In this document: positions 1 to 64,000 of the stretch, piece after piece
How positions within the stretch are numbered: position 1 is the first letter of the stretch
Layout of the letters: each line of letters starts with the position of its first letter
IMG/VR virus record: IMGVR_UViG_3300034069_002177
Coordinates: 138,738-202,737 of that record
Source of the DNA: a virus
Lineage: Duplodnaviria; Caudoviricetes
DNA length: 64,000 bases
Strand: one strand, 5' to 3'
Notes under the pieces: model-generated
What the model was told of the DNA's origin: nothing
Database searches by the model: none
Seen by the model: only the letters and a program-made list of their open reading frames with translations
Program-made: the position numbers and the translations under genes

Positions 1-282
1 GAACTGCGGTACGTCATTCCCAAGTCGGTAGCGAAGAAGCTCCAAGACTTGAAAATTCTCGCCGCGCAAGTGAGTAGAAATACCCCCGAAGATGCACCTT
101 CGAGACTAGCTAGCGCCGAGTTGGCTAGGTTGATGTTCGTTGAAAAGAGCAATGGAGCTACCTATCAAGAAATAGCCGAAGCTACCGGTTTGTCATCGTG
201 GGCTTCTGTAAAGTTCCGCCTGGGTCGTCACGGCTATATCAATCTCCCGCCGTCAATGGCGCACGAACGTATTCTCAGTTAG
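1..282 (+). CDS. Helix-turn-helix DNA-binding protein, 5'-truncated by the window edge
   Basis: Frame 1 is open from base 1 (ELRYVIPKSVAKKLQDLKIL...). HTH-like segment GATYQEIAEATGLSSWASVKFRL. Confidence 0.6.
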   Translation, partial: ELRYVIPKSVAKKLQDLKILAAQVSRNTPEDAPSRLASAELARLMFVEKSNGATYQEIAEATGLSSWASVKFRLGRHGYINLPPSMAHERILS

Positions 283-312
283 GAAGCTTTGATAGGGTGT
301 GGCAAATTTCCA

Positions 313-335
313 TGTCAGTGGGTTTGTAGTACACT
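313..335 (+). promoter_or_regulatory. Promoter; PafBC/RecA-NDp-like variant (TGTCAG-N11-TACACT)
   Basis: TGTCAG 313-318 and TACACT 330-335, a spacer one base longer than consensus. An alternative reading is TTTCCA(307-312)-17-TACACT. Confidence 0.4.
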
Positions 336-383
336 TGAATGCAGTAGGAAAGAAGCATCCTAGCGCAAATTGGAGGTGGCGAA

Positions 384-806
384 ATGGCTCAAATGAAATT
401 CGCTGTCAAGTGCCAAATGTGCAAAAACACTACTAAAGATCCTAGCGGTCTTTGCCAGCACCACCGCAATCTCAGTGGTAGCGCGGTTCGCAAGCTGACA
501 TTCGGCTCGGGTTTGACCCCCAAGCAGGAAACGCTGAAAAGTGCCGTGGTAAGTAACACCGAAGACCAGAATCTTTATCTGAGCGCAGCGAGCATCCAAA
601 ACGAGATTGTCAAGGGCATCGCTTACGAATTAGATCTCACAGACGGATACGGCGAAGAATTCGACACTCTGCAATCCGTAGAGGAAGCGGGCAAACCTAA
701 TGAAGGTCTTCTTGCATTCACAACTGTGGGCGGCGTGACAATGTACTTCTCCCCTGAGGAATTCGTAGATGTTCGTCTCGGTGATTCAGCCGTCAACGCC
801 GCTTAG
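384..806 (+). CDS. Hypothetical protein with N-terminal CCCH zinc knuckle
   Basis: GGAGG RBS at 372-376. N-terminus CQMC-x10-CQHH. Confidence 0.75.
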   Translation: MAQMKFAVKCQMCKNTTKDPSGLCQHHRNLSGSAVRKLTFGSGLTPKQETLKSAVVSNTEDQNLYLSAASIQNEIVKGIAYELDLTDGYGEEFDTLQSVEEAGKPNEGLLAFTTVGGVTMYFSPEEFVDVRLGDSAVNAA

Positions 807-1480
807 AGACCGCTAACGGCAATCGAGAAGATAGCCAATACGGGGATGATGATAAGAGCCGCGCCGAAGTACGTCATGTAGCGTCTACCAAATCGACGCG
901 GGGGCTTGCCTGCACCATTGTCAACTATCTTGACGACGCTACCGGTACGCATGAGTCGGAATTTCTCTACTTCGTTGATACCCTGTGGCTTGTATCCCAA
1001 GAGTTTGTCTGAGCGATAATCATTTTCCAAATCAAATGTGTCGATGACCGGGAATTGGTTCGGGAACCACCGGAAGAACCCTTTGACTAGCGCTACAAAA
1101 TCAGATGCAGTGTCTCGACTGTTGTCTACGAGACTCCGTACTTCGTCTTCAAACGTCTGACCATCTTCACGGGACAGAAGCATCTCCTTGACGGACTTAG
1201 GCGTCCCGTCTGGGTGAAGCGTAAGCTGTTCTTTCCACGTCCTACCCGAGACATCTTGCTTCGGTTTGCGAACGGTAGGCTCATCCCGCTGCGTTTCTAG
1301 AATAATGGAATGACCACTCCAGTGAATCTGACCTATCGTGTCGATGAAGAATGGCTGATTGGCGTAGTCGAGCTTGCCTGCCCCATTGGATGAGACAGTG
1401 ACTGTCGTGACGTTACCATCAGAGTTGTTCCTGATGGTGACTCGATCATTGGGCTGTAGTTCTGGGATGCTGAGCGGCAC
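803..1480 (-). CDS. Hypothetical protein with C-terminal membrane anchor, co-transcribed with ligA
   Basis: 225 aa, AAGGA RBS, starts 16 bp after the ligA stop. Hydrophobic C-terminus YFGAALIIIPVLAIFSIAV. Confidence 0.7.
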   Translation of the reverse strand: MPLSIPELQPNDRVTIRNNSDGNVTTVTVSSNGAGKLDYANQPFFIDTIGQIHWSGHSIILETQRDEPTVRKPKQDVSGRTWKEQLTLHPDGTPKSVKEMLLSREDGQTFEDEVRSLVDNSRDTASDFVALVKGFFRWFPNQFPVIDTFDLENDYRSDKLLGYKPQGINEVEKFRLMRTGSVVKIVDNGAGKPPRRFGRRYMTYFGAALIIIPVLAIFSIAVSGL

Positions 1481-1495
1481 TGTTCGTCCTTCGAC

Positions 1496-3469
1496 TTAAT
1501 CAAACAACGCACTGAGCGTGTTATCCGTATTGACTACACTATCATTTGTGTTCGGCTTAGACACCAACTCGCGAGCGGTTGCCTCAAAATCAGCGGCATC
1601 CATCACTTTGATGCCAAGCGATGCAGCCTTCTGCAATTTAGAACCGGCATCTTCACCAGCAACTACGAGGTCCGTGGTCTTGCTGACGCTTGACTGAACA
1701 TTGGCACCCAGTTTCTTAGCCTCGTCCGCAGCCTGCGTGCGACCGAACGTAGGAAACTTTCCCGTCATGACGAGGTTGAGTCCAATGAAAGGACTTGCGT
1801 TAGGTACCACAACACGCTCTGCTTCTACAGGCTTGTACCCGTATCGGACATACAGTTCACGCTCGGTACGCTCGATTCGCTCCTGAGCAGCAATGACACT
1901 CTTTGCCTTGGTACCCCCAAAGCGGGGAATTGCCAGAAGATCTTCTTCGCTTGCCTGAGCGATACCGCCGAGAGTGTGAAACCTTTCCGCAAGCTGGGTA
2001 GCAGTCGAAAGAGATGCGCGAGCAATTCCCAATGCAGCGAACCATTTGGCAACCGTTGCGCCCTTGATGGCATCCTGAATAGCCTTGACAGCCTTATTGG
2101 CGGAAACGGTACCCTGCCGGTCCAGTTCCGTAATCTGAGCAGGTGTGACACCAAGCATGTCCACGAGGTCTTTGACGATGCCTGCGGCAACAAGCTTACC
2201 TACGAGAACGGATGAAACTCCCAGAACCCCAAGCTGTCCAAGCCCATAGGTGATGATCGTGACAGGGTCGCAGCCACCTACAGAGCAAACAATGTCTTTG
2301 TTCTTGAAATAGATGGGCGATCCACAGGTGGGGCAGGCATCGGGAATGGCAATATCTACCGCATCGGGGGAGTGGTCGCCGTTTCGACCAATGACATAAG
2401 GAATAACTTCGTTGCTGCGCTGAACATCAATCGTGTCATTGATTTTGATATCCATTTCCTGAAGGAAAGTTGCATTGTGAAGTGTAGCGCGAGCTACATC
2501 AACGCCAAGCTTGATGGGTTCGAAAACTGCCACCGGAACGATGCGTCCAGTACGCCCAGTGCTCCACTCGACAGCGTGAAGAACAGTCTGCTTGACTTCG
2601 GACTTGAACTTGAAAGCGACAGCCCAGTTAGGAGACGTGGATGATTCACCGAGGGCATCCCTCGTGGGCTGATCTCCTACCTTAATGACTACACCATCGG
2701 AATCAAATCCAAAGTCCTTACGCTCTGTTTCAAGGCGGGTGATGAGAGCCATGATGGAAGCAGCATGGTCTTCCTTGACCGTTTCGAAGAAGTGTTCGAT
2801 AGAAGTGAGAAATCCCTCTTCTTCTAGCTGCCAAGTGGGCAGGTCGCCGCCGTAGGTTACGAAGTCAACGAACTCACCAATACCGGTAACGTTTTTGCGA
2901 CGAATGATTCCGGTGGCAGTGTTTCGCGGGTTCGAGTAGTCGCCACCCAGGGGCGAGTTGTTCAGCTTCTCAAAATTCTCATGAGTGACGATGACTTCAC
3001 CTCGAACTTCCGTCCGAACACGACCGGTGTCGATAGAGTCAGGCAGTTTTCCAGCGGAAATGAGTTCACGAATAGCGGGGGTGATGTCCTCCCCATAGAT
3101 GCCGTTCCCTCGCGTAACGGCGCGCTCGAAGTATCCATCGACACCATAGATGACCGATGCTGCGCCACCGTCGTACTTCAATTCAACGGTGTATTTACGA
3201 GCCTCAGAGTTCTTGACGAATTCCTCGATATCTTCGGCGGCAAAAACTTTACGAAGAGAGAGCATGCGCTCCTTATGGGCAATCTTGCCTTCAGGAACAT
3301 ACCCGTGACCGACGCCCGCTTCTTCCTCGTCCACGCCAAGTGAATCCAACTCAGCAACGATGAGATCGAACTCGTCATCTGAGATGACGGACTCGCCGGA
3401 GTAATAAGCCTGAGAGGCTTCATCTCGCTTGGCGCTCAGCGCGGCGATGCGTTCTTCTTTGTTAGTCAC
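1496..3469 (-). CDS. ligA: NAD-dependent DNA ligase
   Basis: Adenylation motif ELKYDG, TRGNGxxGED, NPRN, DGVVIK, AVAFKF, OB domain (GRTGRIVP), C4 zinc finger CPTC-x12-C-x4-C, HhH repeats, C-terminal BRCT (SVSKTTDLVVAGEDAGSKLQKA). Confidence 0.97.
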   Translation of the reverse strand: MTNKEERIAALSAKRDEASQAYYSGESVISDDEFDLIVAELDSLGVDEEEAGVGHGYVPEGKIAHKERMLSLRKVFAAEDIEEFVKNSEARKYTVELKYDGGAASVIYGVDGYFERAVTRGNGIYGEDITPAIRELISAGKLPDSIDTGRVRTEVRGEVIVTHENFEKLNNSPLGGDYSNPRNTATGIIRRKNVTGIGEFVDFVTYGGDLPTWQLEEEGFLTSIEHFFETVKEDHAASIMALITRLETERKDFGFDSDGVVIKVGDQPTRDALGESSTSPNWAVAFKFKSEVKQTVLHAVEWSTGRTGRIVPVAVFEPIKLGVDVARATLHNATFLQEMDIKINDTIDVQRSNEVIPYVIGRNGDHSPDAVDIAIPDACPTCGSPIYFKNKDIVCSVGGCDPVTIITYGLGQLGVLGVSSVLVGKLVAAGIVKDLVDMLGVTPAQITELDRQGTVSANKAVKAIQDAIKGATVAKWFAALGIARASLSTATQLAERFHTLGGIAQASEEDLLAIPRFGGTKAKSVIAAQERIERTERELYVRYGYKPVEAERVVVPNASPFIGLNLVMTGKFPTFGRTQAADEAKKLGANVQSSVSKTTDLVVAGEDAGSKLQKAASLGIKVMDAADFEATARELVSKPNTNDSVVNTDNTLSALFD

Positions 3470-3616: not shown

Positions 3617-4396
3617 ATGAAAAGACTTGTCGGACTGGCAGCCATTACGGTTGCAACCGTTGCCTTGCTGACGGGTTGTACCGCCATTCAAAGCAAGCCC
3701 GAAGTCATCCACTACCCCACTTACCCAGAACAGAATGTTTCTGCTCCCAAGTATGACACAAAAGCCGGTAAGGCAACGAAGCAAATTAGCTACAACAGCG
3801 AGTCGGTGCAGACAAGCACGCTCATTCCTAATACCACCATCAGCCCAGATTCCATTCCTCAGGATTTGCAAGATTCCAAGGTATTTGATATCACCCCACC
3901 GGTAGAAAACCAACCATTTATTGTCAAGATCACTTACAGGAGCAACAAGGCTGGATACTTCACAGGGGTGTCATCAACAGGTGATTACACGGACACTATC
4001 AATTCATTCGATTCTCCTGGTACAAAATACGCCATTATTGGCGTGTACGGTAAGTCTCAGACTGAGGGCGTCAAGGTGTTCGGTGACGGGCAATGGACAT
4101 TAGACATCACCCCTATTTCACAGTTGCCTGTTTTCAATGGCAAGAAAATTAGTGGCACAGGAGCTAAGGCGTTTCTTGTCAACGGCAAAACCGTCAACGT
4201 CCTCATCGCGGACGATGGTGCCGGTTTCAATCTTTACTCTTATGGGTACCAGAACCGAGTTCTCGAAAGCAACAACAGCGGGTCGCAGAATCTCAATACG
4301 GCACTACCCGGTAACGGCACAATTGTGATAGTCGATTACGACAAGCCCTGGTCCATCACCAAAGCTAAGAAGGTCGTCAGTGAAGAAGCTAAGTAA
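3617..4396 (+). CDS. Lipoprotein (beta-rich), paralog of the next gene
   Basis: CAGGAG RBS, signal peptide with lipobox LLTGC, GDGQWTLDITP motif. Confidence 0.8.
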   Translation: MKRLVGLAAITVATVALLTGCTAIQSKPEVIHYPTYPEQNVSAPKYDTKAGKATKQISYNSESVQTSTLIPNTTISPDSIPQDLQDSKVFDITPPVENQPFIVKITYRSNKAGYFTGVSSTGDYTDTINSFDSPGTKYAIIGVYGKSQTEGVKVFGDGQWTLDITPISQLPVFNGKKISGTGAKAFLVNGKTVNVLIADDGAGFNLYSYGYQNRVLESNNSGSQNLNTALPGNGTIVIVDYDKPWSITKAKKVVSEEAK

Positions 4397-5132
4397 AGCC
4401 ATCGCGGCAATGATTGCCGTGTCATTTCTACTCACCGCCTGTTCAAGTAGCAAGCCGGAGCCAGTACCGACTGCCACCAAAACAGAGGCGGCAGTCGTGC
4501 GCCCCAATTACGACACTAGTGATAAAGCTTCGATTCCTTTCACCATCAATGGAACTGGCTCACGAGACATCAAAATCAACTTCCCTACTGGCTACAAGGA
4601 ACCGTCTCTAGTGACCCTAAGTAGTAATGGCGCTGTCGATGTAACAGAGCTAAACTATGACGGTGACAGTGTTGCGGATACCGTCAGTATTGATTCCGAC
4701 GAGGGTGGCTCCCAAACAGTCGCCAAATACCCCACAGCAGATACCCCCGCTCGAACTTCCAACTTCCACGTCGATGCCAAGGATGGAGTTGCATGGGCTA
4801 TCAGTGCGCAGTCATTGGGTTCCGTTCAGAAATTGTCCAGCCTCAGCGTTTCAGGTACCGAATCGCAAATCTTTATGCTCGATTCAAAGGCTAACGTTCT
4901 GGACTTCAAAACCATCGGTGATGGTTCGGCAACGGTCTACATCATTCCTCTTAAAGGCGATTCACCGGTATCGCTCGGTGGAGGTCAGGACACGGGCAAC
5001 TACAGAACGCCAGCCTCTTCATCTAACGCCAATCTTAAGAACTATGAAGGCTCGGTATTCGAGATTGTAGCGAACAACCCGGATACGCAGAGCTACCAAT
5101 TGATTTTCACACAGCAAAATCTTGACAACTAG
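4380..5132 (+). CDS. Lipoprotein (beta-rich), paralog of the previous gene
   Basis: Lipobox LLTAC, PNYDT versus PKYDT in the neighbour, DGVAWAISAQ, 17-bp overlap with the upstream gene. Confidence 0.8.
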   Translation: MKKLSKAIAAMIAVSFLLTACSSSKPEPVPTATKTEAAVVRPNYDTSDKASIPFTINGTGSRDIKINFPTGYKEPSLVTLSSNGAVDVTELNYDGDSVADTVSIDSDEGGSQTVAKYPTADTPARTSNFHVDAKDGVAWAISAQSLGSVQKLSSLSVSGTESQIFMLDSKANVLDFKTIGDGSATVYIIPLKGDSPVSLGGGQDTGNYRTPASSSNANLKNYEGSVFEIVANNPDTQSYQLIFTQQNLDN

Positions 5133-6252: not shown

Positions 6253-6280
6253 TTGTGTTACCTGAGCGAAGTGCTACGAT
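6253..6280 (+). promoter_or_regulatory. Promoter of the conjugation genes (tcpC-like)
   Basis: TTGTGT-16 bp-TACGAT with extended -10 (TGC), directly after the terminator. Confidence 0.55.
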
Positions 6281-6311
6281 GTGCATTCAACACAAGCTGC
6301 TGAGGAAATTG

Positions 6312-7568
6312 ATGGCACAGAGAGATAACCGCGACTTTGGCGAACTCCGCGAAACCGCACCAACAGATCAAGATTTTTACCGTGCTCTAGGTGAAAAGAT
6401 GGGTCGTAGTCGATCCACTACCGGCAAGAGAGTTGCTGCTATCGGCGTGTGGGTGGTCGTCATTGCATTCTTGGCTTTAACGGTTCTGAGCGCATTCCAA
6501 GTGAATACCAACCGCAACGGAACAGTCAAGCTTCAGGGGATGATTACGACTCAGTACAACCCTTCGTTTAAAACGCGCTATTCTGATCTTGGTAAAGAAA
6601 TCATCAATAGCTGGTATGACACCAACGTCTCTCCTGCGCCAGTGCAGCTTGCTGATGGAGTATCCTGGCCGCACACGGGTACGAGCGACCTCACTGATAT
6701 CGAAGCCAACAATCAGGCAATCGCGAGCAAAGCGGACTACACCCCTTCCATCACTGTGCGTAACGTCACTTACATTGGCGGTCGTCAAGAAAAGTCGCCC
6801 ACTGTTGATGGTCAGTTCTATGAAATCGACATGTACTCGGCTTATGTCGATGGAACGCTCAGTAACATTTCCGTTACTCTTACCATCCCAAGCCTAGACG
6901 ACTACACAACCCTTCCCACTTTGATGAACGAGCCGTCTATTCTTCCTAGCACCGCTTCTGTCGGCAAGCCGACCACTAGCGATGCGCCCAACTGGCGTGG
7001 AGTTTCGGCTACTGACAATTTCACCACGCAGCTAGAGTCATGGGCTGCCGCTTACACCGCAAATGATTCATCTGCACTCAAGCAGATTACCGGTGATAAC
7101 AGTGGAAGCTTCTACGTAGGTGCTGTATCCGACAAGACGTGGCAGTACATCAAAGACTCCGCAAAGGTTGTCTGGATCAAGGAAAACAACGGAAACACCA
7201 ATGAAGCTGTTGCTCAGGTTACCTGGCAGATGAAGCTTCCCGACACTACCGTTGATGACCCCAACAGCGACGACAGCAGCGATACTATCACCCAGACTGG
7301 CGCTACTCAGACGCAGCGTCTTGAGATCCTCATCAAGAGCCCCGGTAGTGGTCTTCCGCTTATTGTTGCCTGGGGTCCAGTTGGAAGCTACGCAACTCTT
7401 ACCGAGGACACCAACAAGTTGACCCAGGACGAGTACAACGCGATCACTGGATCTGTCACTTCCGATGGCGGCTCAGACTCTGGGAGCGGTACCGATAGTG
7501 GAACTACCAGTGATAATGGAAGTACACCTGCACCGACCGATTCAAGTACCGGAAAACCTTCGGACTAA
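6312..7568 (+). CDS. Conjugation channel protein, TcpC/VirB8-like
   Basis: GAGGA RBS before ATG 6312. Short cytoplasmic N-terminus, one TM helix, two tandem alpha/beta domains, S/G/T/D tail. Sits directly before a VirB4-like ATPase. Confidence 0.6.
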   Translation: MAQRDNRDFGELRETAPTDQDFYRALGEKMGRSRSTTGKRVAAIGVWVVVIAFLALTVLSAFQVNTNRNGTVKLQGMITTQYNPSFKTRYSDLGKEIINSWYDTNVSPAPVQLADGVSWPHTGTSDLTDIEANNQAIASKADYTPSITVRNVTYIGGRQEKSPTVDGQFYEIDMYSAYVDGTLSNISVTLTIPSLDDYTTLPTLMNEPSILPSTASVGKPTTSDAPNWRGVSATDNFTTQLESWAAAYTANDSSALKQITGDNSGSFYVGAVSDKTWQYIKDSAKVVWIKENNGNTNEAVAQVTWQMKLPDTTVDDPNSDDSSDTITQTGATQTQRLEILIKSPGSGLPLIVAWGPVGSYATLTEDTNKLTQDEYNAITGSVTSDGGSDSGSGTDSGTTSDNGSTPAPTDSSTGKPSD

Positions 7569-24899: not shown

Positions 24900-24912
24900 G
24901 GATGAGTCTCTG

Positions 24913-26988: not shown

Positions 26989-27012
26989 CTCGAACCTAGA
27001 TTGGTGGTGGAA

Positions 27013-42013: not shown

Positions 42014-42033
42014 GTAACCCGAGAAAGGCAAGA

Positions 42034-49077: not shown

Positions 49078-49109
49078 ATGGATTACAAGGCAAATAGTTG
49101 GAGGTTGTC

Positions 49110-54078: not shown

Positions 54079-54107
54079 TTGCGGCAACCAAAATCGTTTG
54101 CTACAGT
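54079..54107 (+). promoter_or_regulatory. dnaN promoter
   Basis: TTGCGG-17 bp-TACAGT with extended -10 (TGC); same -35 as ligA. Confidence 0.6.
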
Positions 54108-54139
54108 ACCTACACCTAAGAAGGATAAAGAGAACAAGA

Positions 54140-55351
54140 ATGAAGATTACAGCAGATCAGCAGGTCATCGATAAGAGCATCAAGGTAGTTGAAACCTATG
54201 CCGCCAAGGAAGGTTCGGGTGGTAGCATCAACAACCTTTCGTCCATCCTCATTAATGCGGATAAGGACACGAACACCGTCACGCTTACCGCCGAGAATGA
54301 ACTCTCTGCAACCCAGTATGTGATTTCCAGTGATGTCACCGTCGAAGAATCTGGTACCATCCTGGTGCCTGCCGCTCGACTAAAGATTGCTGTTTCGAAC
54401 GTAGCCGCAGGTGAAGAGGTCGAGTTGGAGGCAGATAACCTCAACCTCACCATTTCGTCAGGTCAGCGTAAACTTTCGCTTGGTCTTCTTGATGTGCATT
54501 CGACCCTTCTCCCTCGTATTGGTGAGACCGGTGATGCTTCTGCTGTATTCCAGTCTAGCGAGTTCGTCGCAGGCTTCAAGGGTGGTGCTTCGATTGCTGA
54601 TAACGGCAGTTCCAGCGTTTCCAGCAACGTGTACCTCGGTTTCGAGGGTAAGCGAGCACTTTTTGCCACCCGTATCGGTGCTGCTGTCAACCTCAAGTAC
54701 GTGGGCATTGAGAAGCTTGATGGCAGCATCGAGACTCTTGTCAACCGAAGCGCGCTCAACAACGCCATCGAGCAGATTGCTCAAGGGGATACCGTCGAGG
54801 TATCGCTAGCTGAGAACAAGAGTGACGTACATCTCGTTATCAAGGGCGAAGGCATCAATCGCCACATCCGTCTCGCCACTTCGGCGCACGATGTCAAGGC
54901 GTTCCAGGTTGACCTCATCAAGAACAACACCCTTTCCAGCGTCACTAAGTCGGTAGGCATCGTCACCGTCAACAAGCGTGACCTTATCGCCACCTTGCGG
55001 GCTGCTGACGCCATCGCCGCCCTCAACGGCAAGACGGAGGTTCGTGACATCAAGATTGCAGTAGCTAAGGGTGGTATCACCATCAGCGTCAAGGATCGCG
55101 CCGGGTTCGAGGATGTCGTTGATATCAAGAGCCTTGTGGGAGAGCCTGCATCGCTTCTGTTCCGCTGGAATCAGTTCACCAACCTGTTCGAGTCATACCC
55201 CGCAGACCGCGACGAACTCATCATCGCCTTCATCCCGCGTGAGGGTAACATCATCCGTTCTATCGCTCTAATCGATGATGAGAACTTCGCTCCCGGCGAT
55301 GACGCATCTAACCTGACTTATGTTGCTATGGCAGCCGCAAGTCAGCCGTAA
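54140..55351 (+). CDS. dnaN: DNA polymerase III beta sliding clamp (divergent)
   Basis: MKITAD..LSSILINA..VTLTAENEL..VEESGTILVPA; three-domain periodicity; about 400 aa. Confidence 0.85.
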   Translation: MKITADQQVIDKSIKVVETYAAKEGSGGSINNLSSILINADKDTNTVTLTAENELSATQYVISSDVTVEESGTILVPAARLKIAVSNVAAGEEVELEADNLNLTISSGQRKLSLGLLDVHSTLLPRIGETGDASAVFQSSEFVAGFKGGASIADNGSSSVSSNVYLGFEGKRALFATRIGAAVNLKYVGIEKLDGSIETLVNRSALNNAIEQIAQGDTVEVSLAENKSDVHLVIKGEGINRHIRLATSAHDVKAFQVDLIKNNTLSSVTKSVGIVTVNKRDLIATLRAADAIAALNGKTEVRDIKIAVAKGGITISVKDRAGFEDVVDIKSLVGEPASLLFRWNQFTNLFESYPADRDELIIAFIPREGNIIRSIALIDDENFAPGDDASNLTYVAMAAASQP

Positions 55352-56301: not shown

Positions 56302-57354
56302 ATGACCGTTACAATCTCTCGCGAGCAAATCGAAGCAGAGGTTGACAAGGTACTTCCTTCCGAAAGTGCTGGTGTTGTAGTCGAACTTCCCGAAGAGTGG
56401 GTAAAGAGCTTCAACGCCAAATCTCGAAGCGAGAGCCCTTCGTCAATTGTTTCCTACCTACAGTGCCCTTTGCGCTGGTTCGTGGACCGTCACGCGCCGT
56501 TCGAGCGCATCAAGTCTCCTACTCGTTGGACGGTGCTTGGAACGTTCGTGCACCGTGTTCTGGAAGTTTTCTACTCCGAGCCTGCACATCTTCGTAGTCA
56601 GAAATTGCTCATGGAAACTTATGAGTATGCCTATGAACTTCTGGAAAAGAACGACACCGAAGATGGACTCATTGACAAGTCTTTGGCTGAGGACTACCAG
56701 ATTACTTTAGAGAGCGACAAGTATGGACGTGCCAGCGTTCAGAAGTACATGCGTACTCGCTCACGCGAAATTGTAGAGGGGTACCTAGATAACTTCGAGC
56801 CCGACCCCGAAGAAGTCGAAGTCATTTCAAATGAAACATGGGTTCGTGGAGAAATCAACGGCGTCAAGATTCAGGGTAAGATCGACCGCGTTATCCCTGA
56901 TGATGAAGATGGCGAAATCATTGAGGACTACAAGACAGGAAAGACTGTCGGAATCACCTCTGACTTCAAAGGTCCGCGAGTATTCGAAAAGACACTCATC
57001 CCGGCTGGTATCTATGCCTGGCTGCGCATGGAGATGACTCGTAAGGAGCTTCTACCTTCTAAGGTGACTTCCGTACGTTTGCTCTACATCGGCGCGTCTC
57101 CTGAGCCTGAGAGCGTTTCCATCAACGTCAACGACAACACCGTCGAGCGTATCCGTAGCCTTATCAGCGCAATTACGCTGGATATGGATGCTATGGTGAA
57201 CAAGGACAAGGAAATTCTTGCAATCGCGGCTCCCAAGAATGGTGACCGGCGTGGATACTGCGAGTATTGCCCTATCCTCAAGGATTGTCCGGCATGGACA
57301 AACAGTGATTCACTTGATGACATTGTAGCCAACTATACTGTTCTCAAGCGATAA
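56302..57354 (+). CDS. PD-(D/E)XK nuclease of the RecB/AddB/Cas4-like type with an Fe-S staple
   Basis: SPSSI..YLQCP, GTFVHRVLE, GKIDRV..IEDYKTG, C-terminal CEYCPILKDC. Confidence 0.88.
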   Translation: MTVTISREQIEAEVDKVLPSESAGVVVELPEEWVKSFNAKSRSESPSSIVSYLQCPLRWFVDRHAPFERIKSPTRWTVLGTFVHRVLEVFYSEPAHLRSQKLLMETYEYAYELLEKNDTEDGLIDKSLAEDYQITLESDKYGRASVQKYMRTRSREIVEGYLDNFEPDPEEVEVISNETWVRGEINGVKIQGKIDRVIPDDEDGEIIEDYKTGKTVGITSDFKGPRVFEKTLIPAGIYAWLRMEMTRKELLPSKVTSVRLLYIGASPEPESVSINVNDNTVERIRSLISAITLDMDAMVNKDKEILAIAAPKNGDRRGYCEYCPILKDCPAWTNSDSLDDIVANYTVLKR

Positions 57355-57365: not shown

Positions 57366-58073
57366 GTGGTTGCAGTACGCACATGTGGTTACAACGGTTG
57401 TGGTAACCCGGTAAGAGAGGGCGAACTACGTTGCTATCGGCACAAGGATGTCGAGGCTCACGCTAGTAACCCTTTGAAGTCTGCAAGCGCTTCTGATTCT
57501 ACTTTCATTCGTGAGCAGTGGCATTCGCTCAAAGAACTTTCCTTCCTCGTGAACCGCAAGGCTCCGGGAGCTATGACGATGAATGAGCGCCAGGCTGAGT
57601 TTCTCGCTGTTGCTTCGAAGATGGATCTAAAAACGGCTGGTCGTGTTGCCGATGCTAGCGAAATCATCAATCAAAGACGCCCGGAACTGAATACTCCCGC
57701 GTTTGTGGCTCAGAATCTGATGGGTCTTATTGGTGAGTTCACCAACGATTTGGAAGAGTCTGGTATCGACCCGAAACGCATCAGTCGGTTGCAGATGTGG
57801 AATGCTACTCGACGTATTGGCAACGGAAGACTTGACAACTCGGCTGATGTAGGGCATGTTGTTCTCGTAATGGACCGGGGCGAACCAAGAGAGTCCACGA
57901 TGGACGTAGGAATTTCGATGTTTGCGCCGGTAGCCGATCCGAATAGACCAGTTGCCGATCAGTACGATACCAAGTATTCCCCGTTTGGTTACGCTCCGCT
58001 GATTAGCACGGTTGATACTTACAAGCAAGAACGGTATCTATGGTTCCAGCACTTCCGGTATTTGGATTCCTAA
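57366..58073 (+). CDS. Hypothetical protein with N-terminal CCCH zinc knuckle
   Basis: AAGGAG RBS; C-x4-C-x10-C-x2-H (CGYNGCGNPVREGELRCYRH). Confidence 0.75.
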   Translation: MVAVRTCGYNGCGNPVREGELRCYRHKDVEAHASNPLKSASASDSTFIREQWHSLKELSFLVNRKAPGAMTMNERQAEFLAVASKMDLKTAGRVADASEIINQRRPELNTPAFVAQNLMGLIGEFTNDLEESGIDPKRISRLQMWNATRRIGNGRLDNSADVGHVVLVMDRGEPRESTMDVGISMFAPVADPNRPVADQYDTKYSPFGYAPLISTVDTYKQERYLWFQHFRYLDS

Positions 58074-58136: not shown

Positions 58137-60260
58137 ATGGCAGAACCAACGTATGACGCAAATAGTCTACAAAAGCTCGACCCGATTGACCACATCCGTA
58201 AGCGTCTTCCGATGTACTTGGGAGACAACACGGGAGAGGGCGGACTTTCTACCGCTCTTCGAGAAATCATTGACAACTCTCAGGATGAGTTTCTCAACGG
58301 TCATGGCAAGAAGATTACGATTACGTTCTTCGAAGATGGTTCTGCCGAAGTTCAGGACCAAGGTCGAGGAATTCCAACTGGAATCAACAAGGCTACCGGC
58401 GAAAATGGTATCGTCTTGGCGCTTGCCAACGTTGGTGCGGGTGGAAAGTTCGGCGTTGAAGGTGGCGGCTACGGCGGTGGCTCTGGTGGTCTAAACGGTG
58501 TCGGTACGACAGCCAGTAACGCCATCAGCCAGCGTTTCGATGTTACTGTGTACCAGAACGGAAAAGAACATAAGATTTCATTCCGTCAAGGTAAGCCTGG
58601 TAAGTTCGCTATCGATAACGACCCGTTCTCCAAGTTTTCGCCTTCTAAGGACTTGGTTGTCAAGCCTGACCCTCGCACCGCTAAGGACAAGAAAGAACGT
58701 CCTACGGGCACCACAATCCGTATGTGGGCTGATTCAGACCTATTCATGCCTGTGGAAATCGTCAATGCAGAAGGCGAGACCGTAGAGGTACCTGCATCAT
58801 TCGACGTGGAAACGCTAAAGTTCCGAATGAAGTCAACTGCGTTCCTACTTCCTGGTCTTTGTATCGAATTCAATGACTTCCGCGATCCCAATAATCATGT
58901 CGTTGACGTTTACGAGTTCGACGGCGGTATCGCTGAGATGCTTGAAACAATCACACACGAACAGCCGTTGATGAAGCCCGTCCATTTCATGTCCGAAGGT
59001 AACTTCACAGAAAAGGCTGCAATTGCTGACGCCAACGGCAAGATTACTACCGGTCAGGTTGATCGACATGTAGACATCGATGTTGCGTTCGAATACGTCA
59101 ACGGCTATGACACGATCATGAAGTCATTCGTGAACATCATCAATACCAAGCATGGTGGAACACATGAGTCCGGTTTCTACCGAGCTATGAGTCGTATCAT
59201 TATCGACAACATCAAGAATGGTCGAGGTCTCCTCAAGCCCAAAGAGGAGCCACCGATTCTCGAAGATGTCAAGGATGGTCTAGTCGCAATTGTTTCTATC
59301 AAGTTCCCTGAACCTCAGTTCACTGGTCAGGAGAAGTCGGCGCTCGGAACGACTGCTATTACTTCGCTACTTTCCCAGGAAATCGGAAATCAGCTAAAGT
59401 CGTTCCTAGAAGACAAGAAGAACGCTGCCACAGCTAAGATCATTTACACCAAGGTAATCGAAGCTGCTCGTGTTCGTTTAGCACAGCGTCAACTCAAAGA
59501 GGTAGCGCGCCGTAAAACGGCTCTTGATAGCGCATCAATGCCCGCTAAGCTCACCGACTGTGAGTATGTCGGTGTTGGCTCCGATAGCGAACTTCTCATT
59601 GTAGAAGGTGACTCGGCTGGTGGTCAGATGAAGCTTGCCCGCGACTCGGGACACCAGGCGTTGCTTCCCATTCGAGGTAAGATTCTAAACTCTCAAAAAG
59701 TGTCGATTGCTGACGCTCTCAAGAACAACGAGATTTCCGAGATTATTCAGGTCATTGGTGCAGGTATGGGTAAGAGTTTCGACCCAGCGCTTATGCGTTA
59801 CGACCGAGTTGTCATCGCCGCAGACGCTGACGTGGATGGGTCTCACATCCGAACCCTACTCATCGCATTATTCGCACGATTCATGCGTCCTCTTATCGTA
59901 GAAGGTCGCCTCTATACCGCAGTTCCTCCGTTGTTTGTCGTTAAGACTCTGGGTAAAAATCCAGAGACCATTTACGTACAAAATGACGAGGAACTCGTCA
60001 AGGTACAGAAACGTCTAGCCGTCGAAAAGAAACAGATTCGTATGCCAATCGAACGCTTCAAGGGTCTTGGTGAAATGGAAGACTACGAACTGTGGGATAC
60101 TACGCTCGACCCCGCAAAAAGAACTCTTCGACGCATTACGATGAACGATATCGAGAAGGCGGAGGACATGCTCGACCTAGCAATGGGTAACGATGTCGCA
60201 CCGCGTAAGGACTGGATCATCAATTCCAGTGACAGCTTCGACCGTTCCATCCTCGACTAA
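58137..60260 (+). CDS. parE: Type IIA topoisomerase subunit B (GyrB/ParE family; Topo IV-like)
   Basis: GHKL motifs EIIDNSQDE, DQGRGIP, GGKF, GGLNGVG; TOPRIM motifs EGDSA, PIRGKILN, DADVDG, RFKGLGEM. Extended -10 TGC-TAGATT at 58101-58109. Confidence 0.93.
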   Translation: MAEPTYDANSLQKLDPIDHIRKRLPMYLGDNTGEGGLSTALREIIDNSQDEFLNGHGKKITITFFEDGSAEVQDQGRGIPTGINKATGENGIVLALANVGAGGKFGVEGGGYGGGSGGLNGVGTTASNAISQRFDVTVYQNGKEHKISFRQGKPGKFAIDNDPFSKFSPSKDLVVKPDPRTAKDKKERPTGTTIRMWADSDLFMPVEIVNAEGETVEVPASFDVETLKFRMKSTAFLLPGLCIEFNDFRDPNNHVVDVYEFDGGIAEMLETITHEQPLMKPVHFMSEGNFTEKAAIADANGKITTGQVDRHVDIDVAFEYVNGYDTIMKSFVNIINTKHGGTHESGFYRAMSRIIIDNIKNGRGLLKPKEEPPILEDVKDGLVAIVSIKFPEPQFTGQEKSALGTTAITSLLSQEIGNQLKSFLEDKKNAATAKIIYTKVIEAARVRLAQRQLKEVARRKTALDSASMPAKLTDCEYVGVGSDSELLIVEGDSAGGQMKLARDSGHQALLPIRGKILNSQKVSIADALKNNEISEIIQVIGAGMGKSFDPALMRYDRVVIAADADVDGSHIRTLLIALFARFMRPLIVEGRLYTAVPPLFVVKTLGKNPETIYVQNDEELVKVQKRLAVEKKQIRMPIERFKGLGEMEDYELWDTTLDPAKRTLRRITMNDIEKAEDMLDLAMGNDVAPRKDWIINSSDSFDRSILD

Positions 60261-60285
60261 AACTTCAAGAAAGAGAAAACACAAA

Positions 60286-62733
60286 ATGGCTACACGCAGA
60301 AAACAAACCAAAAAGGAACAAGGCTCCGTTAGCTTCGCTAGCGCCGCCGCTCATATCGATGAGGCTGATGTTGCGGAAGAGATGGAAACATCCTTCCTTG
60401 AATACGCTTACTCCGTCATTACCGACCGCGCTCTCGTGGATGCTCGTGATGGATTGAAGCCAGTTCACCGCCGTATCATTTACAGCATGTTCGACAGTGG
60501 ACTGTACCCTGAGAGAGCCTACGTAAAGGCTGCACAGGTTGTCGGTGAAGTAATGGGTAAGTACCACCCTCACGGCGATTCTTCCATCTATAGCTCTCTT
60601 GTGGGTATCACACAGGACTTCAACATGATGTTGCCTCTTGCTGACGGCAAGGGCAACTGGGGTTCGACCGATGATGGTCCTGCTGCCCCTCGATACACCG
60701 AGACGCGTCTTGATTCCAACGCTATGTTGCTTGCCGGTGAGCTAAAAGAGAAGGTCGTTGACACCGTATTCAACTACGACGGCTCGCGCGAAATCCCTGA
60801 CGTTCTTCCCGTGCAATACCCGAACACACTCATCAATGGTCAGAGTGGAATCGCCGTAGGTATGGCAACAAAGATGCCTACCCACAACCCCGGTGAAGTG
60901 ATGGACGCTGCACGTTGGCTACTCACTCACCCGAATGCAGACCTTGACAAGCTGATGGAATTCATTCCCGGACCAGACTTCCCGACAGGTGGAACTATCG
61001 TTGGTGTTGACAGGATTCGCGAGGCATATGAGACAGGTCGCGGTGCCATTAAGATTCGCGGACACGCTGAAATCGAATCTGGTGATCGTGGTAAGAGCCA
61101 AGTTGTCGTCACTGAGCTTCCTTATGGTGTTGGCGCGGAAAAAATCATTGCTAAAGCCGTCGAGTTAGTACGCGATCAGAAACTTCTCGGCGTCTCGAAC
61201 ATCAAGAACCTCACTGACCGCCGTCAGGGAATGCGTATCGTTTTCGTTGTCAAGGCTGGTGTAAATCCGAACGTTGTTTTGAATGCGCTGTTCTCGATGA
61301 CCGATTTGGAATCGACATTCGCCATCAACAACACGTGTTTGGTGAACGGTCAGCCCCAGACTCTAGGGTTGAAGTCCCTTCTTCAGATCTTCCTCGATCA
61401 CCGCCTTGACGTAGTAATGCGTCGCAGCATTAACCGTCGCTCTGAGCGTGAAAAGAGTCTTCACCGCGTTGAGGGTCTGTTGAAGGCGCTTGTGGACATC
61501 GATAAGGTCATCAAGATTATTCGTAGTGCCGAAGATACCGAGACTGCCAAGACCAATCTTGTCAAGCAGTTCAAAGTGGACGAGATCCAAGCCGAGTACA
61601 TTCTCGGTATCCAGCTACGCTCACTAACTAAGTTCGATCAGATCAAGCTATCTGCTGACCGCGACCGGCTCAAAGGTGAGATTGCAGAACTCACTGAAAT
61701 CATTGACAATGATTCGGTACTTCGCAAGCTTGTCGGTGATGAGCTTACTGCTGCCAAGAAGCTGATTGATCGCCCTCGGTCTTCAGTTATTCTCGGCGGT
61801 AACATTGCTGAGCACATCGAAGAAGCCAAGACTGTTGCTCAGTCTATGACGCTCGAAGTAGAAGACGCTGCTGTAGAGGTCGCTGTATTTGCTGATGGCT
61901 CTGTACGTCGGGTGGATGCCGGTACAAAGATCAAGTCGTTCTCTAAGGGTGGCAAGTTGTCTACCGTCGTAGATACAATTCCAGCCCGCACTCGTGGGAA
62001 AATTGTTCTTGTATCCAACAAGGGTCGGGGCTTCCGTATCGATACTCTCCATGTTGCTGACAAGCCAACTGATGCCAAGTCACTCATCTCCTTGGAAAAG
62101 GATGAACGCATCATCGCTCTGGCTCCTGTGGAGGATAAAGAGGTCGATGCCAATAGCACCTCTGGTATTGGGTTCTTCTTCGCTACCAAAAACGGTACTG
62201 TGAAAATCACCAAGCCTGACTACCCCAAGCGCTCTGATGAGTTCAACCTCTTCCCCGTTGAAAATGGCGATGAGATTGTCACTGCAAGATGGGTTGAAAG
62301 TCTTGAGGGTGCCGAAGTTGCACTTATCACTACCGATTCGTCACTGCTTCGTTTCCCTGCGGAGAAGGTGTCTCGCCAAGGATTCACTGGTGGCGGTGTG
62401 GCTGGTATCAAGCTAGGGGAGGATACACACGTACTAGCAGCTACCCTGCTGACCTCTCTGGAAGTCGAGAAGGCTGTCGTCGTTACTTCTACCGGTCAGT
62501 CCGTCAAGGTTAGTCCGTTCAATCTATATCCACCTAAGGGTAGGGCTACCGGAGGCGTTCGGTCACACCGTTTTGTCAAGGGAGAAGAGTCTCTGTCCGC
62601 TGCGGGAATCGTAGTAGATCCGGTTGTTGTTGATGACAGTGGTAGTAAAATCGAGCTTCCTGCTGTAGACTCAAAACGTGATAACGCGGGTACTAAAATG
62701 GATGTCAAAATCGACTTCATTGGCTGTGCATAA
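60286..62733 (+). CDS. parC: Type IIA topoisomerase subunit A (GyrA/ParC family; no GyrA-box seen, so Topo IV-like)
   Basis: DARDGLKPVHRR, YHPHGD, catalytic APRYTE, GIAVGMAT, GPDFPTGG, C-terminal beta-pinwheel blades (QGFTGGGVAGI, KGRATGGV). ATG 60286. Confidence 0.93.
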   Translation: MATRRKQTKKEQGSVSFASAAAHIDEADVAEEMETSFLEYAYSVITDRALVDARDGLKPVHRRIIYSMFDSGLYPERAYVKAAQVVGEVMGKYHPHGDSSIYSSLVGITQDFNMMLPLADGKGNWGSTDDGPAAPRYTETRLDSNAMLLAGELKEKVVDTVFNYDGSREIPDVLPVQYPNTLINGQSGIAVGMATKMPTHNPGEVMDAARWLLTHPNADLDKLMEFIPGPDFPTGGTIVGVDRIREAYETGRGAIKIRGHAEIESGDRGKSQVVVTELPYGVGAEKIIAKAVELVRDQKLLGVSNIKNLTDRRQGMRIVFVVKAGVNPNVVLNALFSMTDLESTFAINNTCLVNGQPQTLGLKSLLQIFLDHRLDVVMRRSINRRSEREKSLHRVEGLLKALVDIDKVIKIIRSAEDTETAKTNLVKQFKVDEIQAEYILGIQLRSLTKFDQIKLSADRDRLKGEIAELTEIIDNDSVLRKLVGDELTAAKKLIDRPRSSVILGGNIAEHIEEAKTVAQSMTLEVEDAAVEVAVFADGSVRRVDAGTKIKSFSKGGKLSTVVDTIPARTRGKIVLVSNKGRGFRIDTLHVADKPTDAKSLISLEKDERIIALAPVEDKEVDANSTSGIGFFFATKNGTVKITKPDYPKRSDEFNLFPVENGDEIVTARWVESLEGAEVALITTDSSLLRFPAEKVSRQGFTGGGVAGIKLGEDTHVLAATLLTSLEVEKAVVVTSTGQSVKVSPFNLYPPKGRATGGVRSHRFVKGEESLSAAGIVVDPVVVDDSGSKIELPAVDSKRDNAGTKMDVKIDFIGCA

Positions 62734-62763
62734 GCTTGGAATTATCGCTACGTAAAAGCTAGG

Positions 62764-62793
62764 TTGACTTAATCAAAATAGCAGTGGTAAGAT
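62764..62793 (+). promoter_or_regulatory. Housekeeping-sigma promoter
   Basis: TTGACT-18 bp-TAAGAT with extended -10 (TGG). Confidence 0.65.
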
Positions 62794-62817
62794 AGAACCC
62801 TAGCGAAAGAAAGCCAA

Positions 62818-63684
62818 ATGCCTTTTACCCCAGAACCTCTAACCGCCGACGAACAGAAGATTTACGACGAGATTAACATTGGTGCCAATGCTCATCACAA
62901 AACGCATGGCGCGGGCATTGTTGTTGCAAAAGATGACAACAACGTCACCATCGAAATCGTGAACTCCGTGAGTTCGTCAGCTAGCAGTAGAAGTTTCAGG
63001 ACTCTCATCGAGAATGAGGAAGAGCGTGAGCGAGATGTCACTAAAGACCGCGCCAACACAATGGTCATCAAGGTTCCCAAGAAGATCATTGTGGATGAAT
63101 TCGGTGCTTGGAAGATTGATAAGACCTTCGGTCGCGTTCTTCTGAATACCGTCACAAGCTATCTTGAAGAGACACCCTCGTTCGTGAACTTTGATGAGAT
63201 TCCGAATACCATCGAGGTCGGTGCATTCTCTCGTCGTATCAAGGAACTTCGAGCCGTCAACTACAACGACACCGACTCACTCATGCAACATGTTGCTCAG
63301 TGCCTCGATAATGCAGTGTTCACCTGGGCTCGTGAAGTTTCACGAGTGCCGGTCGAAGAGCAGCAGGAAGCATACCAGGAAGCATTAGATCACCTTGGTA
63401 AGGATGCATGGAGAAATATCTTCCACGTCCACGCTCGCAATACGGACTCTGAGCGCCGTGTCGTGGAGAGCATGCTTCTCAACATCACCAATAAATCTGT
63501 CGAGGATATCTTCGACTATCAGGCTCGTCGCCAAGCCGCTATCAAGCTCTCTGACGCCATCGAAAACCGTGCCGCAGTAGTTCTTCGCTCCTACATCGAG
63601 AACCAATTCGAAATCGTTTCTAAAGAAAACGAGCCTCTCGGCATCGACATGAAAACGCAGAAGTCAGAAAAAGCGTATAGCTAA
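62818..63684 (+). CDS. Hypothetical protein with an N-terminal Tudor/SH3-like segment
   Basis: GANAHHKTHGAGIVVAKDDNNVTIEI followed by a helical domain; has its own promoter. Confidence 0.75.
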   Translation: MPFTPEPLTADEQKIYDEINIGANAHHKTHGAGIVVAKDDNNVTIEIVNSVSSSASSRSFRTLIENEEERERDVTKDRANTMVIKVPKKIIVDEFGAWKIDKTFGRVLLNTVTSYLEETPSFVNFDEIPNTIEVGAFSRRIKELRAVNYNDTDSLMQHVAQCLDNAVFTWAREVSRVPVEEQQEAYQEALDHLGKDAWRNIFHVHARNTDSERRVVESMLLNITNKSVEDIFDYQARRQAAIKLSDAIENRAAVVLRSYIENQFEIVSKENEPLGIDMKTQKSEKAYS

Positions 63685-63715
63685 ATCTGTGTGCTAGCAT
63701 ACGGACGAACGTCGA

Positions 63716-64000
63716 ATGGAGAATGAAATGGGTTCAGAACCAGAATGGGGCTTCGGAGGCGAAGCGCCTAAGAAGAAGAGTAATGCCAAGGAAGCTGTTG
63801 CGAATACAGCTTTGCTAGTAGCGGGGTTCCTTTTGTTCCTCGTTTACGGCATCTACAAGCTAGTAGATCCGAGTGCACACATTGGCGAATCGGGCATTAG
63901 CATCTTGCTCAATGTGATCGGGTTTATTGGTCTCGTCACTATCATCGTCGGTCTAGTCCGCATTCGAGCCTACAACCGTCGCAAGACTAGGGGCTATTAA
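63716..64000 (+). CDS. Small two-TM membrane protein
   Basis: 94 aa, two hydrophobic helices, stop at the window end; extended -10 TGC-TAGCAT at 63692-63700. Confidence 0.65.
   Translation: MENEMGSEPEWGFGGEAPKKKSNAKEAVANTALLVAGFLLFLVYGIYKLVDPSAHIGESGISILLNVIGFIGLVTIIVGLVRIRAYNRRKTRGY

Follow-up and report, generated by a model that had tools for sequence, protein, structure and literature searches.

The conjugative Tcp system of the Clostridium perfringens plasmid pCW3 includes TcpC, a VirB4/TcpF-type ATPase, a TcpH/VirB6-like protein, TcpE and a coupling ATPase of the FtsK family. Huge phages carry many tRNAs and CRISPR systems without adaptation genes. The DNA described here (64,000 nucleotides, referred to as the window) is the last 64 kb of the 202,737-bp IMG/VR record IMGVR_UViG_3300034069_002177 (G000; 51% GC), and appears to carry a Gram-positive Tcp/VirB4-type transfer set interleaved with most of a bacterial DNA polymerase III (Pol III) replisome. 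The likely reading is that the window holds the core backbone of a giant element of the plasmid-like kind, which resides in Actinomycetota, is probably circular and conjugative, and encodes most of its Pol III replisome itself. Compared with the Tcp system of pCW3, matching parts are present, but only the VirB4 protein and the FtsK domain pass profile thresholds, and the cluster of this element also incorporates a MinD-like ATPase and a DnaX homologue.

The Inocles of oral Streptococcus (Kiguchi et al. 2025, PMC12340149) are circular, plasmid-like elements with average sizes of 245-368 kb and 24-32% GC, whose single conserved marker, InoC, bears a PF13814 replication-relaxation domain at about 450 amino acids (aa) (PMC12340149). 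Like the family of G000, they are large, capsid-less and overlooked by standard tools, and they carry VirB4, Pol III alpha, gyrase and DinG-type genes together with a variable complement of tRNAs (PMC12340149). Inocles belong to the Bacillota and have a canonical VirD4, whereas the present family measures 0.5-0.8 Mb at 51% GC and has actinobacterial affinities. It also has a fuller replisome (DnaN, DnaX, DnaB, a helicase loader, single-strand DNA-binding protein (SSB) and LigA), which is syntenic with the transfer genes, and a 64-tRNA array with a tmRNA. Of the traits that define Inocles (InoC with VirB4 and VirD4 on a closed circle of more than 200 kb in Streptococcus), the present family has a weak candidate for a PF13814-domain protein, a VirB4 and a probable circularity, with another host and another composition; InoC was compared by its description.

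The giant linear plasmids of Mycobacterium avium (pS2b type) exceed 300 kb and contain a tRNA array unit, DnaB- and UvrD-type helicases, and VirB4, TcpC/VirB8 and a MinD-type ATPase in one gene cluster (PMC12803027). They resemble the present family in being actinobacterial, in the tRNA array and that trio of genes, and in having no classical relaxase, no recognisable initiator and no actinophage similarity (PMC12803027). They differ in being linear, with inverted repeats of about 415 bp and protein caps, and in carrying a type VII (ESX) secretion system (PMC12803027). DnaE, DnaN, DnaX and LigA were not reported for them (PMC12803027), and the present family is larger and, in its large members, apparently circular. 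The DNA read for this family revealed no ESX genes (G000, 17 kb upstream of it, the region past its end in a relative with 85% identical GyrA, and the 322-kb relative G001; about two thirds of the replicon lie outside); the FtsK-type ATPase alone gives partial EccC matches.

Regarding plasmid-borne polymerases, the actinobacterial megaplasmids with dnaE in PLSDB include those of Embleya (NZ_CP108786.1, 205 kb, also with ligA), Euzebya (572 kb), Tsukamurella (360 kb) and Rhodococcus (238 kb). They share with the present family a plasmid-borne Pol III alpha, in Embleya also an NAD-dependent ligase, and the phylum; their DnaE, however, is about 37% identical and groups in the tree with ordinary chromosomal lineages instead of with the element clade. 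No clamp, helicase, loader or transfer-gene block surrounds the dnaE of the Embleya plasmid, and none of these megaplasmids has a VirB4 like that of the window. The premise of the first-pass annotation of this DNA, that most plasmids borrow Pol III and ligase from the host, was too strong in view of these megaplasmids and of the Inocles with Pol III alpha and gyrase (PMC12340149). A PLSDB search with VirB4 gave two matches at 22% identity, both in Curtobacterium megaplasmids (NZ_CP126255.1 (pS16) and CP018784.1; 546 and 567 kb), with no synteny seen; pS16 is rich in hypothetical genes and carries a flagellar gene set.

Huge phages (>500 kb) and Borgs are likewise very large and rich in hypothetical genes, with many tRNAs, CRISPR-Cas systems and conserved syntenic backbones, and are flagged as virus-like; unlike them, the present family has a transfer apparatus, and no virion genes were found in the DNA read. 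Borgs are linear and archaeal (PMC11208441). As shown by the Hodor megaplasmids, VirB6 and the relaxases of giant plasmids are often detectable by structure alone. The general kind of element is therefore already known; the present family is larger, has the fullest replisome set, and has this set interleaved with transfer genes in a conserved backbone. It has no close relative in collections of phages, plasmids or species genomes, and no paper describing it was found in the literature; a look-up by sequence located it in this genome alone.

The transfer genes of the window are the following.

3617-4396 and 4380-5132, + strand: two predicted lipoproteins (Cys after the signal peptide), first in the transfer cluster
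6255-7568, + strand: TcpC/VirB8-like candidate with one membrane segment (Atlas features)
7658-10420, + strand: VirB4-like transfer ATPase (Pfam AAA_10, 47.6 bits, cut-off 27.5)
10507-12774, + strand: MinD/ParA-like P-loop ATPase whose N-terminal region is long and acidic (PHROG 164, ParA-like, E 2e-4)
13323-13949, + strand: small two-segment membrane protein, candidate TcpE/VirB3-like (hydropathy)
13953-17846, + strand: 1297-aa polytopic membrane protein, candidate VirB6/TcpH-like (hydropathy)
20900-23665, + strand: 921-aa membrane-anchored P-loop protein, candidate second coupling/translocation ATPase (membrane segments and Walker A)
23646-24899, + strand: candidate MOB_C-type (Replic_Relax) relaxase, 417 aa (winged helix and PD-(D/E)XK-like core)
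38880-41972, + strand: membrane-anchored FtsK/SpoIIIE (TcpA/TraB-type) DNA translocase, 1030 aa (Pfam FtsK_SpoIIIE, E 2e-16)

All main open reading frames (ORFs) of the window were compared with Pfam, and the unexplained ones also with PHROGs and NCBIfam. The Walker A motif of the VirB4-like protein reads GRPGAGKT and the P-loop of the MinD/ParA-like ATPase GSHGGAGKT. Pfam, PHROG and NCBIfam were all silent on the TcpC-like candidate; in the Atlas feature search, PF12642 (TcpC) was common to 84 of the 100 matches (best score 0.90), and its homologues adjoin VirB4 both in G001 and in a 37-kb relative, G002. The lipoprotein pair (3617-5132) has no family match and keeps its position in relatives. 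The two membrane proteins at 13323-13949 and 13953-17846 are without family match in Pfam, PHROGs and NCBIfam and have weak homologues at the same position in G001 and G002; the names TcpE-like and VirB6-like follow from membrane topology and are weak assignments. The same holds for the VirD4-like name of the 921-aa protein, which derives from topology and a Walker A motif (GAPNSGKT, at residue 461): this protein gave no profile match and nothing useful in a phmmer search of the PDB, and its homologues in G001 and G002 are 26-32% identical. The FtsK/SpoIIIE translocase, with five N-terminal membrane segments and a Walker A motif, matches FtsK, EccC and plasmid TraB in NCBIfam, all partially, and is likely to be the coupling protein; TcpA-type coupling proteins are described for Gram-positive elements (PMC5357655).

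The candidate relaxase matches Pfam PF13814 with an E-value of 4e-4 and 20.9 bits, under the cut-off of 25.3; this family corresponds to the MOB_C relaxase superfamily (PMC5357655) and supplies the marker domain of the Inocles (PMC12340149). Residues D251, E265 and K283 are invariant in an alignment of four sequences. In an AlphaFold2 (AF2) model with a pLDDT of 50, a winged helix (Z about 10) accompanies a core of alpha-beta-beta-beta-alpha-beta topology; a search with this model finds 'Replication-relaxation' clusters in AFDB with E-values of 9e-6 to 9e-4. On this modelled structure, the relaxase assignment is a lead, not a demonstration. No HUH relaxase was found.

The replication genes of the window, with the backbone block in which some of them stand, are the following.

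1496-3469, - strand: NAD-dependent DNA ligase LigA (Pfam DNA_ligase_aden, E 7e-44; OB, HhH and BRCT)
17910-19643, + strand: DnaX (tau/gamma) clamp-loader ATPase homologue (Pfam DNA_pol3_delta2, E 4e-32; Walker A present)
24913-29998, + strand: backbone block of a 684-aa protein, candidate initiator, loader and AAA protein
27001-27891, + strand: 296-aa candidate initiator (weak DnaD/HTH leads in Atlas)
27846-28571, + strand: DnaC/IstB-like loader (Pfam IstB_IS21, E 2.8e-8; Walker A present)
28577-29998, + strand: AAA protein (weak AAA_22)
30296-34225, + strand: DnaE, Pol III alpha with PHP domain (Pfam PHP, DNA_pol3_alpha, finger, HHH_6)
34304-35941, - strand: DnaB replicative helicase (Pfam DnaB_C, E 1e-39, and DnaB N-terminal domain)
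50386-51027, + strand: SSB (PHROG 44, E 2.7e-8; Pfam SSB, E 0.009)
54098-55351, + strand: DnaN-type sliding clamp, phage-family processivity factor (PHROG 947, E 2e-18)
58137-60260, + strand: ParE/GyrB-like topoisomerase subunit (Pfam DNA_gyraseB, Toprim)
60193-62733, + strand: ParC/GyrA-like topoisomerase subunit (DNA_topoisoIV, E 4e-137; Tyr motif RYTE present)

The catalytic triad of DnaE is intact, Asp434, Asp436 and Asp608 being aligned with D401, D403 and D555 of Escherichia coli, and the HxH motif of the PHP domain is present. LigA has its KxDG motif at residue 98, and the Walker A motif of DnaB reads ARPKVGKT. DnaX is the sole match to PF13177 in the whole of G000. The clamp covers positions 2-324 of the 368 of the PHROG 947 profile, its orthologue in the relative with 85% identical GyrA gives a faint PF00712 match, and it is undetected by TIGR00663 and Pfam, with nothing useful from phmmer against the PDB; it appears from its sequence to be a divergent, phage-family clamp. 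Imperfect 48-60-bp tandem repeats lie at 50766-50994, in the part of the SSB gene that codes for the C-terminal tail. The first-pass annotation had named these classes of replisome and transfer genes, and all of them are in the window, on evidence that ranges from strong Pfam matches (LigA, VirB4, DnaX, DnaE, DnaB, FtsK/SpoIIIE, the topoisomerase pair, SbcC and the SbcD-like protein) to topology. The DnaC/IstB-like, SSB and DnaN-type clamp assignments are graded as moderate, and the TcpC-, TcpE-, VirB6- and VirD4-like ones as weak.

If these genes act together, the element would load its own helicase, by way of the candidate initiator and the DnaC-like loader acting with DnaB, and would be copied by its own polymerase (DnaE with DnaX and SSB), clamp, ligase (LigA) and decatenase (the topoisomerase IV-like enzyme), next to its repair and recombination genes. 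Primase and the delta and delta-prime subunits would be borrowed from the host or encoded elsewhere on the element. Spread from cell to cell would occur by conjugation-like DNA transfer through the putative transfer set of lipoproteins, TcpC-like protein, VirB4, MinD-like ATPase, polytopic membrane proteins, P-loop protein, MOB_C-like candidate and FtsK/TcpA-type translocase.

The order of these genes is conserved across deep divergence. G001 is a 321,819-bp IMG/VR record with 51.3% GC and 19 tRNAs, the homologues of which are 22-38% identical. It shares with the window the order TcpC-like protein, VirB4, MinD-like ATPase, polytopic membrane protein, DnaX, 379-aa protein, 921-aa P-loop protein, Replic_Relax-like protein, 684-aa protein, DnaE, initiator/loader pair, DnaB, SNF2, FtsK, DinG-like helicase and SbcC. 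The exception is that dnaE precedes the candidate initiator/loader pair in G001, where the two adjoin, and follows the pair in the window. Homologues of the topoisomerase pair and of ribonucleotide reductase (RNR) are found elsewhere in G001.

The second relative, G002 (IMGVR_UViG_3300032031_000261), has 37,243 bp, 61% GC and exact terminal inverted repeats of 255 bp, which we take to be the layout of a small actinobacterial linear plasmid. Its order is TcpC-like protein, VirB4, MinD-like ATPase, small and large membrane proteins, DnaX, 379-aa protein, 921-aa protein, Replic_Relax-like protein, 684-aa protein, SNF2, FtsK and SbcD-like protein; DnaE, DnaB and the clamp are missing, and no virion genes were seen by homology. 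This content identifies the transfer-and-maintenance block as a plasmid backbone, to which the giants would have added polymerase, helicase, loader, clamp, SSB, ligase and topoisomerase. G002 may be a small ancestor-like relative.

Several of the VirB4 homologues P0022-P0028 have 1227-1371 aa, and Pfam domains of homing endonucleases (LAGLIDADG/Hom_end) occur in at least one of them. In G001, VirB4 (183,201-187,043) has 1280 aa, and an AAA protease (83,658-88,463) of 1601 aa has intein-like inserts. Inteins seem to be common in this element lineage.

Regarding the size and shape of the replicon, a 654,127-bp JGI contig bears proteins identical to those of G000 and is its parent contig; the megaplasmid or mini-chromosome of Actinomycetota proposed by the first-pass annotation is supported in part, as a plasmid-like, probably conjugative element, more than as a chromosome or an obvious phage, with most of a Pol III replisome and with actinobacterial affinities of DnaE, ParC and WhiB, but the record is not the replicon, having been cut from 654 kb. 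No terminal repeats were found in G000. Within longer Logan contigs of the same sample, it begins and stops exactly at borders of genes. Upstream of it, 17,349 bp have 50.7% GC and carry mostly same-strand, hypothetical-rich genes, including those for MoxR, DUF58, vWA, GmrSD_C and VKOR; beyond its end, in the relative with 85% identical GyrA, genes for an M23 peptidase, Vsr, NERD and RecA follow. Because the ends fall on gene borders and the flanks are continuous, the borders of the 'provirus' are cuts made by software and not ends of the element.

VirB4, pilus ATPase and GyrA orthologues are found on contigs of 805,269 bp (JGI 3300055083 Ga0540634_0000001), 637,428 bp, 536,346 bp, 494,976 bp (ENA ERZ27245361 k141_66157), 422,215 bp (JGI 3300062451 Ga0540622_0000016) and 412,594 bp. 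In the 805,269-bp contig, the genes for the pilus ATPase (T2SSE) and VirB4 start at 31,015 and 715,132, both reversed, and they are spaced by 121,152 bp when measured across the contig ends, as compared with 121,821 bp in G000; in the 494,976-bp contig, the same spacing by way of the ends is 104,784 bp. Relative to G000, circular permutation is therefore seen in two large contigs that are independent of each other; its simplest reading is that the replicons are probably closed circles, one of about 0.8 Mb and one of about 0.5 Mb, the alternative being permutation together with terminal redundancy. The element thus measures at least 654 kb here, and the family about 0.5-0.8 Mb, probably as circles.

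The genes point to a host among the Actinomycetota. DnaE is 34-44% identical to the first DnaE in 81 of 81 sampled Actinomycetota genomes (two unpublished genomes, G055 and G008, count within the 81 and have no row in the tree); with the DnaE of plasmids and actinophages its identity is about 37%, and with second (DnaE2-like) copies about 30%. A DnaE tree (46 rows and 1147 columns; LG+C20 with quick search and SH-aLRT) unites the three element sequences in a single clade (99), whose long branch arises within the starred Actinomycetota DnaE1 set, a placement subject to long-branch caveats. The clade is separate from the DnaE2-like group and from the sequences of E. coli and one member of the Bacillota, and no single chromosomal subclade contains it. 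The best named matches of ParC are subunits A of actinobacterial gyrase or topoisomerase IV (48-49%). From the DnaE tree and the ParC matches it follows that the genes derive from Actinomycetota and have long resided in the element lineage instead of having been captured recently. Judged by the DnaE tree, ParC, WhiB and the VirB4-TcpC/VirB8-MinD trio like that of M. avium, the most likely host is one of the uncultured Actinomycetota.

Among the metagenome-assembled genomes (MAGs), an Acidimicrobiales MAG (G005) has its first DnaE at about 151-154 kb of a contig of at least 531 kb (C8) and a distant VirB4 homologue at about 115-117 kb of a 592-kb contig; in two others (G004 and G007), the DnaE and VirB4 homologues are on different contigs.

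The remaining features of the window are the following.

19727-20866, + strand: conserved 379-aa helical protein (function unassigned by Pfam, PHROG and NCBIfam)
35877-38108, + strand: SNF2-family helicase, a backbone gene (Pfam SNF2-rel_dom, Helicase_C; homologues in G001 and G002)
42004-43200, + strand: SbcD/Mre11-like metallophosphoesterase (Pfam Metallophos, E 1e-9; homologue at the end of G002)
45522-46205, + strand: WhiB-like regulator (Pfam Whib, E 2e-5)
46638-49031, + strand: DinG/XPD-like helicase (Pfam Helicase_C_2, E 6e-38)
51129-53408, + strand: SbcC/Rad50-like ATPase (Pfam AAA_23, SMC_N, SbcC_Walker_B)
56302-57354, + strand: PD-(D/E)XK nuclease (Pfam PDDEXK_1, E 2e-22)

The genes read as sbcCD in the first-pass annotation are both present, but they stand 8 kb apart and do not form an operon. 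The 379-aa protein is kept after dnaX in all relatives, including G001 and G002, and a search of 1.8 billion representatives gave 67 homologues of it; the confident AF2 model (pLDDT 89) is helical and found no fold match in the PDB or AFDB, Atlas likewise giving nothing. Its ORF was considered as a dnaN clamp and rejected: there was no match in Pfam, PHROG, NCBIfam or PDB, and its family profile matches helical bundles alone. The 381-aa ORF at 49098-50243 has no family match. Together with the ORFs at 384-806 and 57366-58073, to which it is otherwise unrelated, it has a similar Cys/His-rich CxxC...CxxH N-terminus over about the first 30 residues, which may be a shared zinc-ribbon tag. A Phage_TAC_12 match (E 0.0017, 30 residues) was dismissed as noise. 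No tRNA and no Rfam family was found within the window.

In a single 14-kb array elsewhere in G000 (64,899-79,000), about 64 tRNA genes cover all 20 amino acids and are accompanied by a tmRNA (tag ANASRNDFALAA). Further genes outside the window code for a UvrD-type helicase, RtcB, the large subunit of a class Ib RNR, a CCA-adding enzyme and NAMPT. A type IV/Tad-like pilus locus at 24,574-29,879, with two T2SSE ATPases and a T2SSF platform protein, is kept in the 805-, 495- and 422-kb relatives and may serve mating-pair formation or DNA uptake. In the relative with 85% identical GyrA (L035:13852-22448), an 804-aa M23 peptidase, a Vsr-like protein, NERD and a 523-aa RecA-domain protein lie downstream of the topoisomerase pair; this peptidase of relatives is a possible candidate for the cell-wall hydrolase of the transfer system.

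Of the alternatives to a conjugative plasmid-like element, a huge phage of 0.5-0.8 Mb ('megaphage') with its virion module in the unread part, and with replisome, tRNAs, tmRNA and CRISPR-Cas as typical cargo, is the one that survives best, and we consider it unlikely. It would account for the classification of G000 and three relatives as viral in IMG/VR (geNomad), for the 64 tRNAs, tmRNA, NAMPT, CCA-adding enzyme, RNR and RtcB of G000, for a clamp and an SSB closer to phage families than to cellular ones, and for the circular permutation of contigs, which fits headful packaging. However, the profiles for capsid, terminase large subunit (two families) and portal (PF05065, PF03354, PF03237, PF04860) remained without a match at E<=1 in G000 to G003, i.e., in 203 kb, 322 kb and two smaller records, PHROGs searched with 40 larger proteins gave no clear virion match, and the VirB4-like query matched none of 50,697 phage genomes. 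The backbone itself contains VirB4, TcpC-like, FtsK-type and MOB_C-like genes, a pilus locus stands elsewhere in the record, and the same backbone recurs in the linear 37-kb G002 with its terminal inverted repeats. To our knowledge, 805 kb is larger than any reported phage genome.

Two PHROG matches in G001 were not taken as virion evidence. The 'terminase' and 'primase' matches of the 1601-aa protein fall in a short insert common to intein-bearing families, beside a strong AAA-protease match, and another protein has a weak 'minor head protein' match over about 85 residues (E 3e-6).

An integrated element (a very large integrative and conjugative element or genomic island) or a chromid, the contigs of 0.5-0.8 Mb then being pieces of a chromosome, is quite improbable in our judgement. 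The 'provirus' label implies flanks that were scored as non-viral, fragmented chromosomes also yield contigs of 400-800 kb, and distant VirB4 homologues occur on contigs of Acidimicrobiales MAGs. Yet both flanks of G000 keep the strand bias, the GC content (50.7%) and the hypothetical-rich style and have no housekeeping genes, and two contigs are permuted at just 805 and 495 kb, which fits closed replicons and not pieces of multi-Mb chromosomes. No close relative is present among 185,579 species genomes, in which the best matches were to VirB4, at 22-25% identity, in MAGs of Acidimicrobiales and other Actinomycetota; a search of sequencing runs listed no RNA dataset carrying the sequence, and the runs with a small share of it, from food and leaf-litter metagenomes, do not count here as evidence of habitat. 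Matches to 16S and 23S primer sites were absent from G000 and G001, and tblastn with 33 E. coli proteins (ribosomal proteins, RNA polymerase, EF-Tu, SecY/E, NusG) found nothing in 757 kb of family DNA (G000, G001, flanks, pieces of relatives, G002 and G003), in which E. coli DnaE, as positive control, gave three matches. The rRNA, ribosomal protein, capsid and terminase genes whose presence in the flanks would, according to the first-pass annotation, refute its reading were not found in the DNA read. Its statement that capsid, tail, ribosomal and metabolic genes are lacking holds for the window, which has no such family match; the metabolic part does not extend beyond it, NAMPT and RNR being present elsewhere in G000.

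The reduced chromosome of a tiny cellular symbiont, with the replisome as its housekeeping set, would have a circular size of 0.5-0.8 Mb, tRNAs for all 20 amino acids, tmRNA, replisome, RecA, RNR, pili and secretion genes, but is a very remote prospect, as 220 kb of the replicon and the 322-kb relative are without rRNA primer sites, ribosomal proteins, RNA polymerase, EF-Tu and SecY, all tRNAs stand in a single 14-kb array, most proteins have no family match, and DnaE is a long branch inside, not at the base of, the Actinomycetota DnaE1.

Several points weigh against the plasmid-like, presumably extrachromosomal element that we prefer. The geNomad and IMG/VR calls on the region are viral ('provirus'), with a CheckV completeness estimate of 96%, and headful-packaging phages also yield circularly permuted assemblies. 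Virion, rRNA or housekeeping genes may sit in the remaining two thirds or so of the 654-kb parent contig, or in most of the 805-kb relative. There is no canonical relaxase, VirD4 or ParB profile match (ParB, PF02195, and dnaN, TIGR00663, are without match in the 203-kb G000), and the relaxase candidate combines a sub-threshold Pfam match with a model of pLDDT 50. Primase (TIGR01391), delta (PF06144) and delta-prime (PF13177, matched by dnaX alone), which the first-pass annotation had already noted as lacking from the window, were not found in G000 as a whole; of the genes it proposed to seek elsewhere (dnaG, holA, holB and parB), none turned up in G000, and a DnaG-type primase gene (E 2.5e-49) is present in G001. 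The window contains no origin, iterons, DnaA-box cluster or recognisable initiator, and no origin-like repeats, its sole tandem repeats being those in the coding region of the SSB tail. Finally, the DnaX homologue is also kept in the polymerase-free G002, so that its role may lie in the transfer and maintenance backbone, either instead of or in addition to one in a self-made replisome; not all of the 'replisome' genes need work in such a replisome.

The wider proposition, that this is an undescribed lineage of circular, capsid-less elements of Actinomycetota of 0.5-0.8 Mb, we hold to be evenly balanced. Its members would have a backbone of a Tcp/VirB4 transfer machine and a self-encoded Pol III replisome, to which tRNAs, tmRNA, CCA-adding enzyme and RtcB, RNR and NAMPT, and CRISPR-Cas are added; they would be the largely self-replicating actinobacterial counterpart of Inocles and Borgs, and may derive from small linear-plasmid-like ancestors. 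If true, the family would be among the largest non-chromosomal replicons without core housekeeping genes, and the most complete case known to us of a transferable element with its own Pol III parts (polymerase, clamp, clamp-loader ATPase, helicase, loader, SSB, ligase and decatenase). It would then offer a system for asking why virus-detection pipelines misfile such elements as proviruses, how far the replication of a plasmid can uncouple from its host, and how small linear plasmids become near-autonomous giants.

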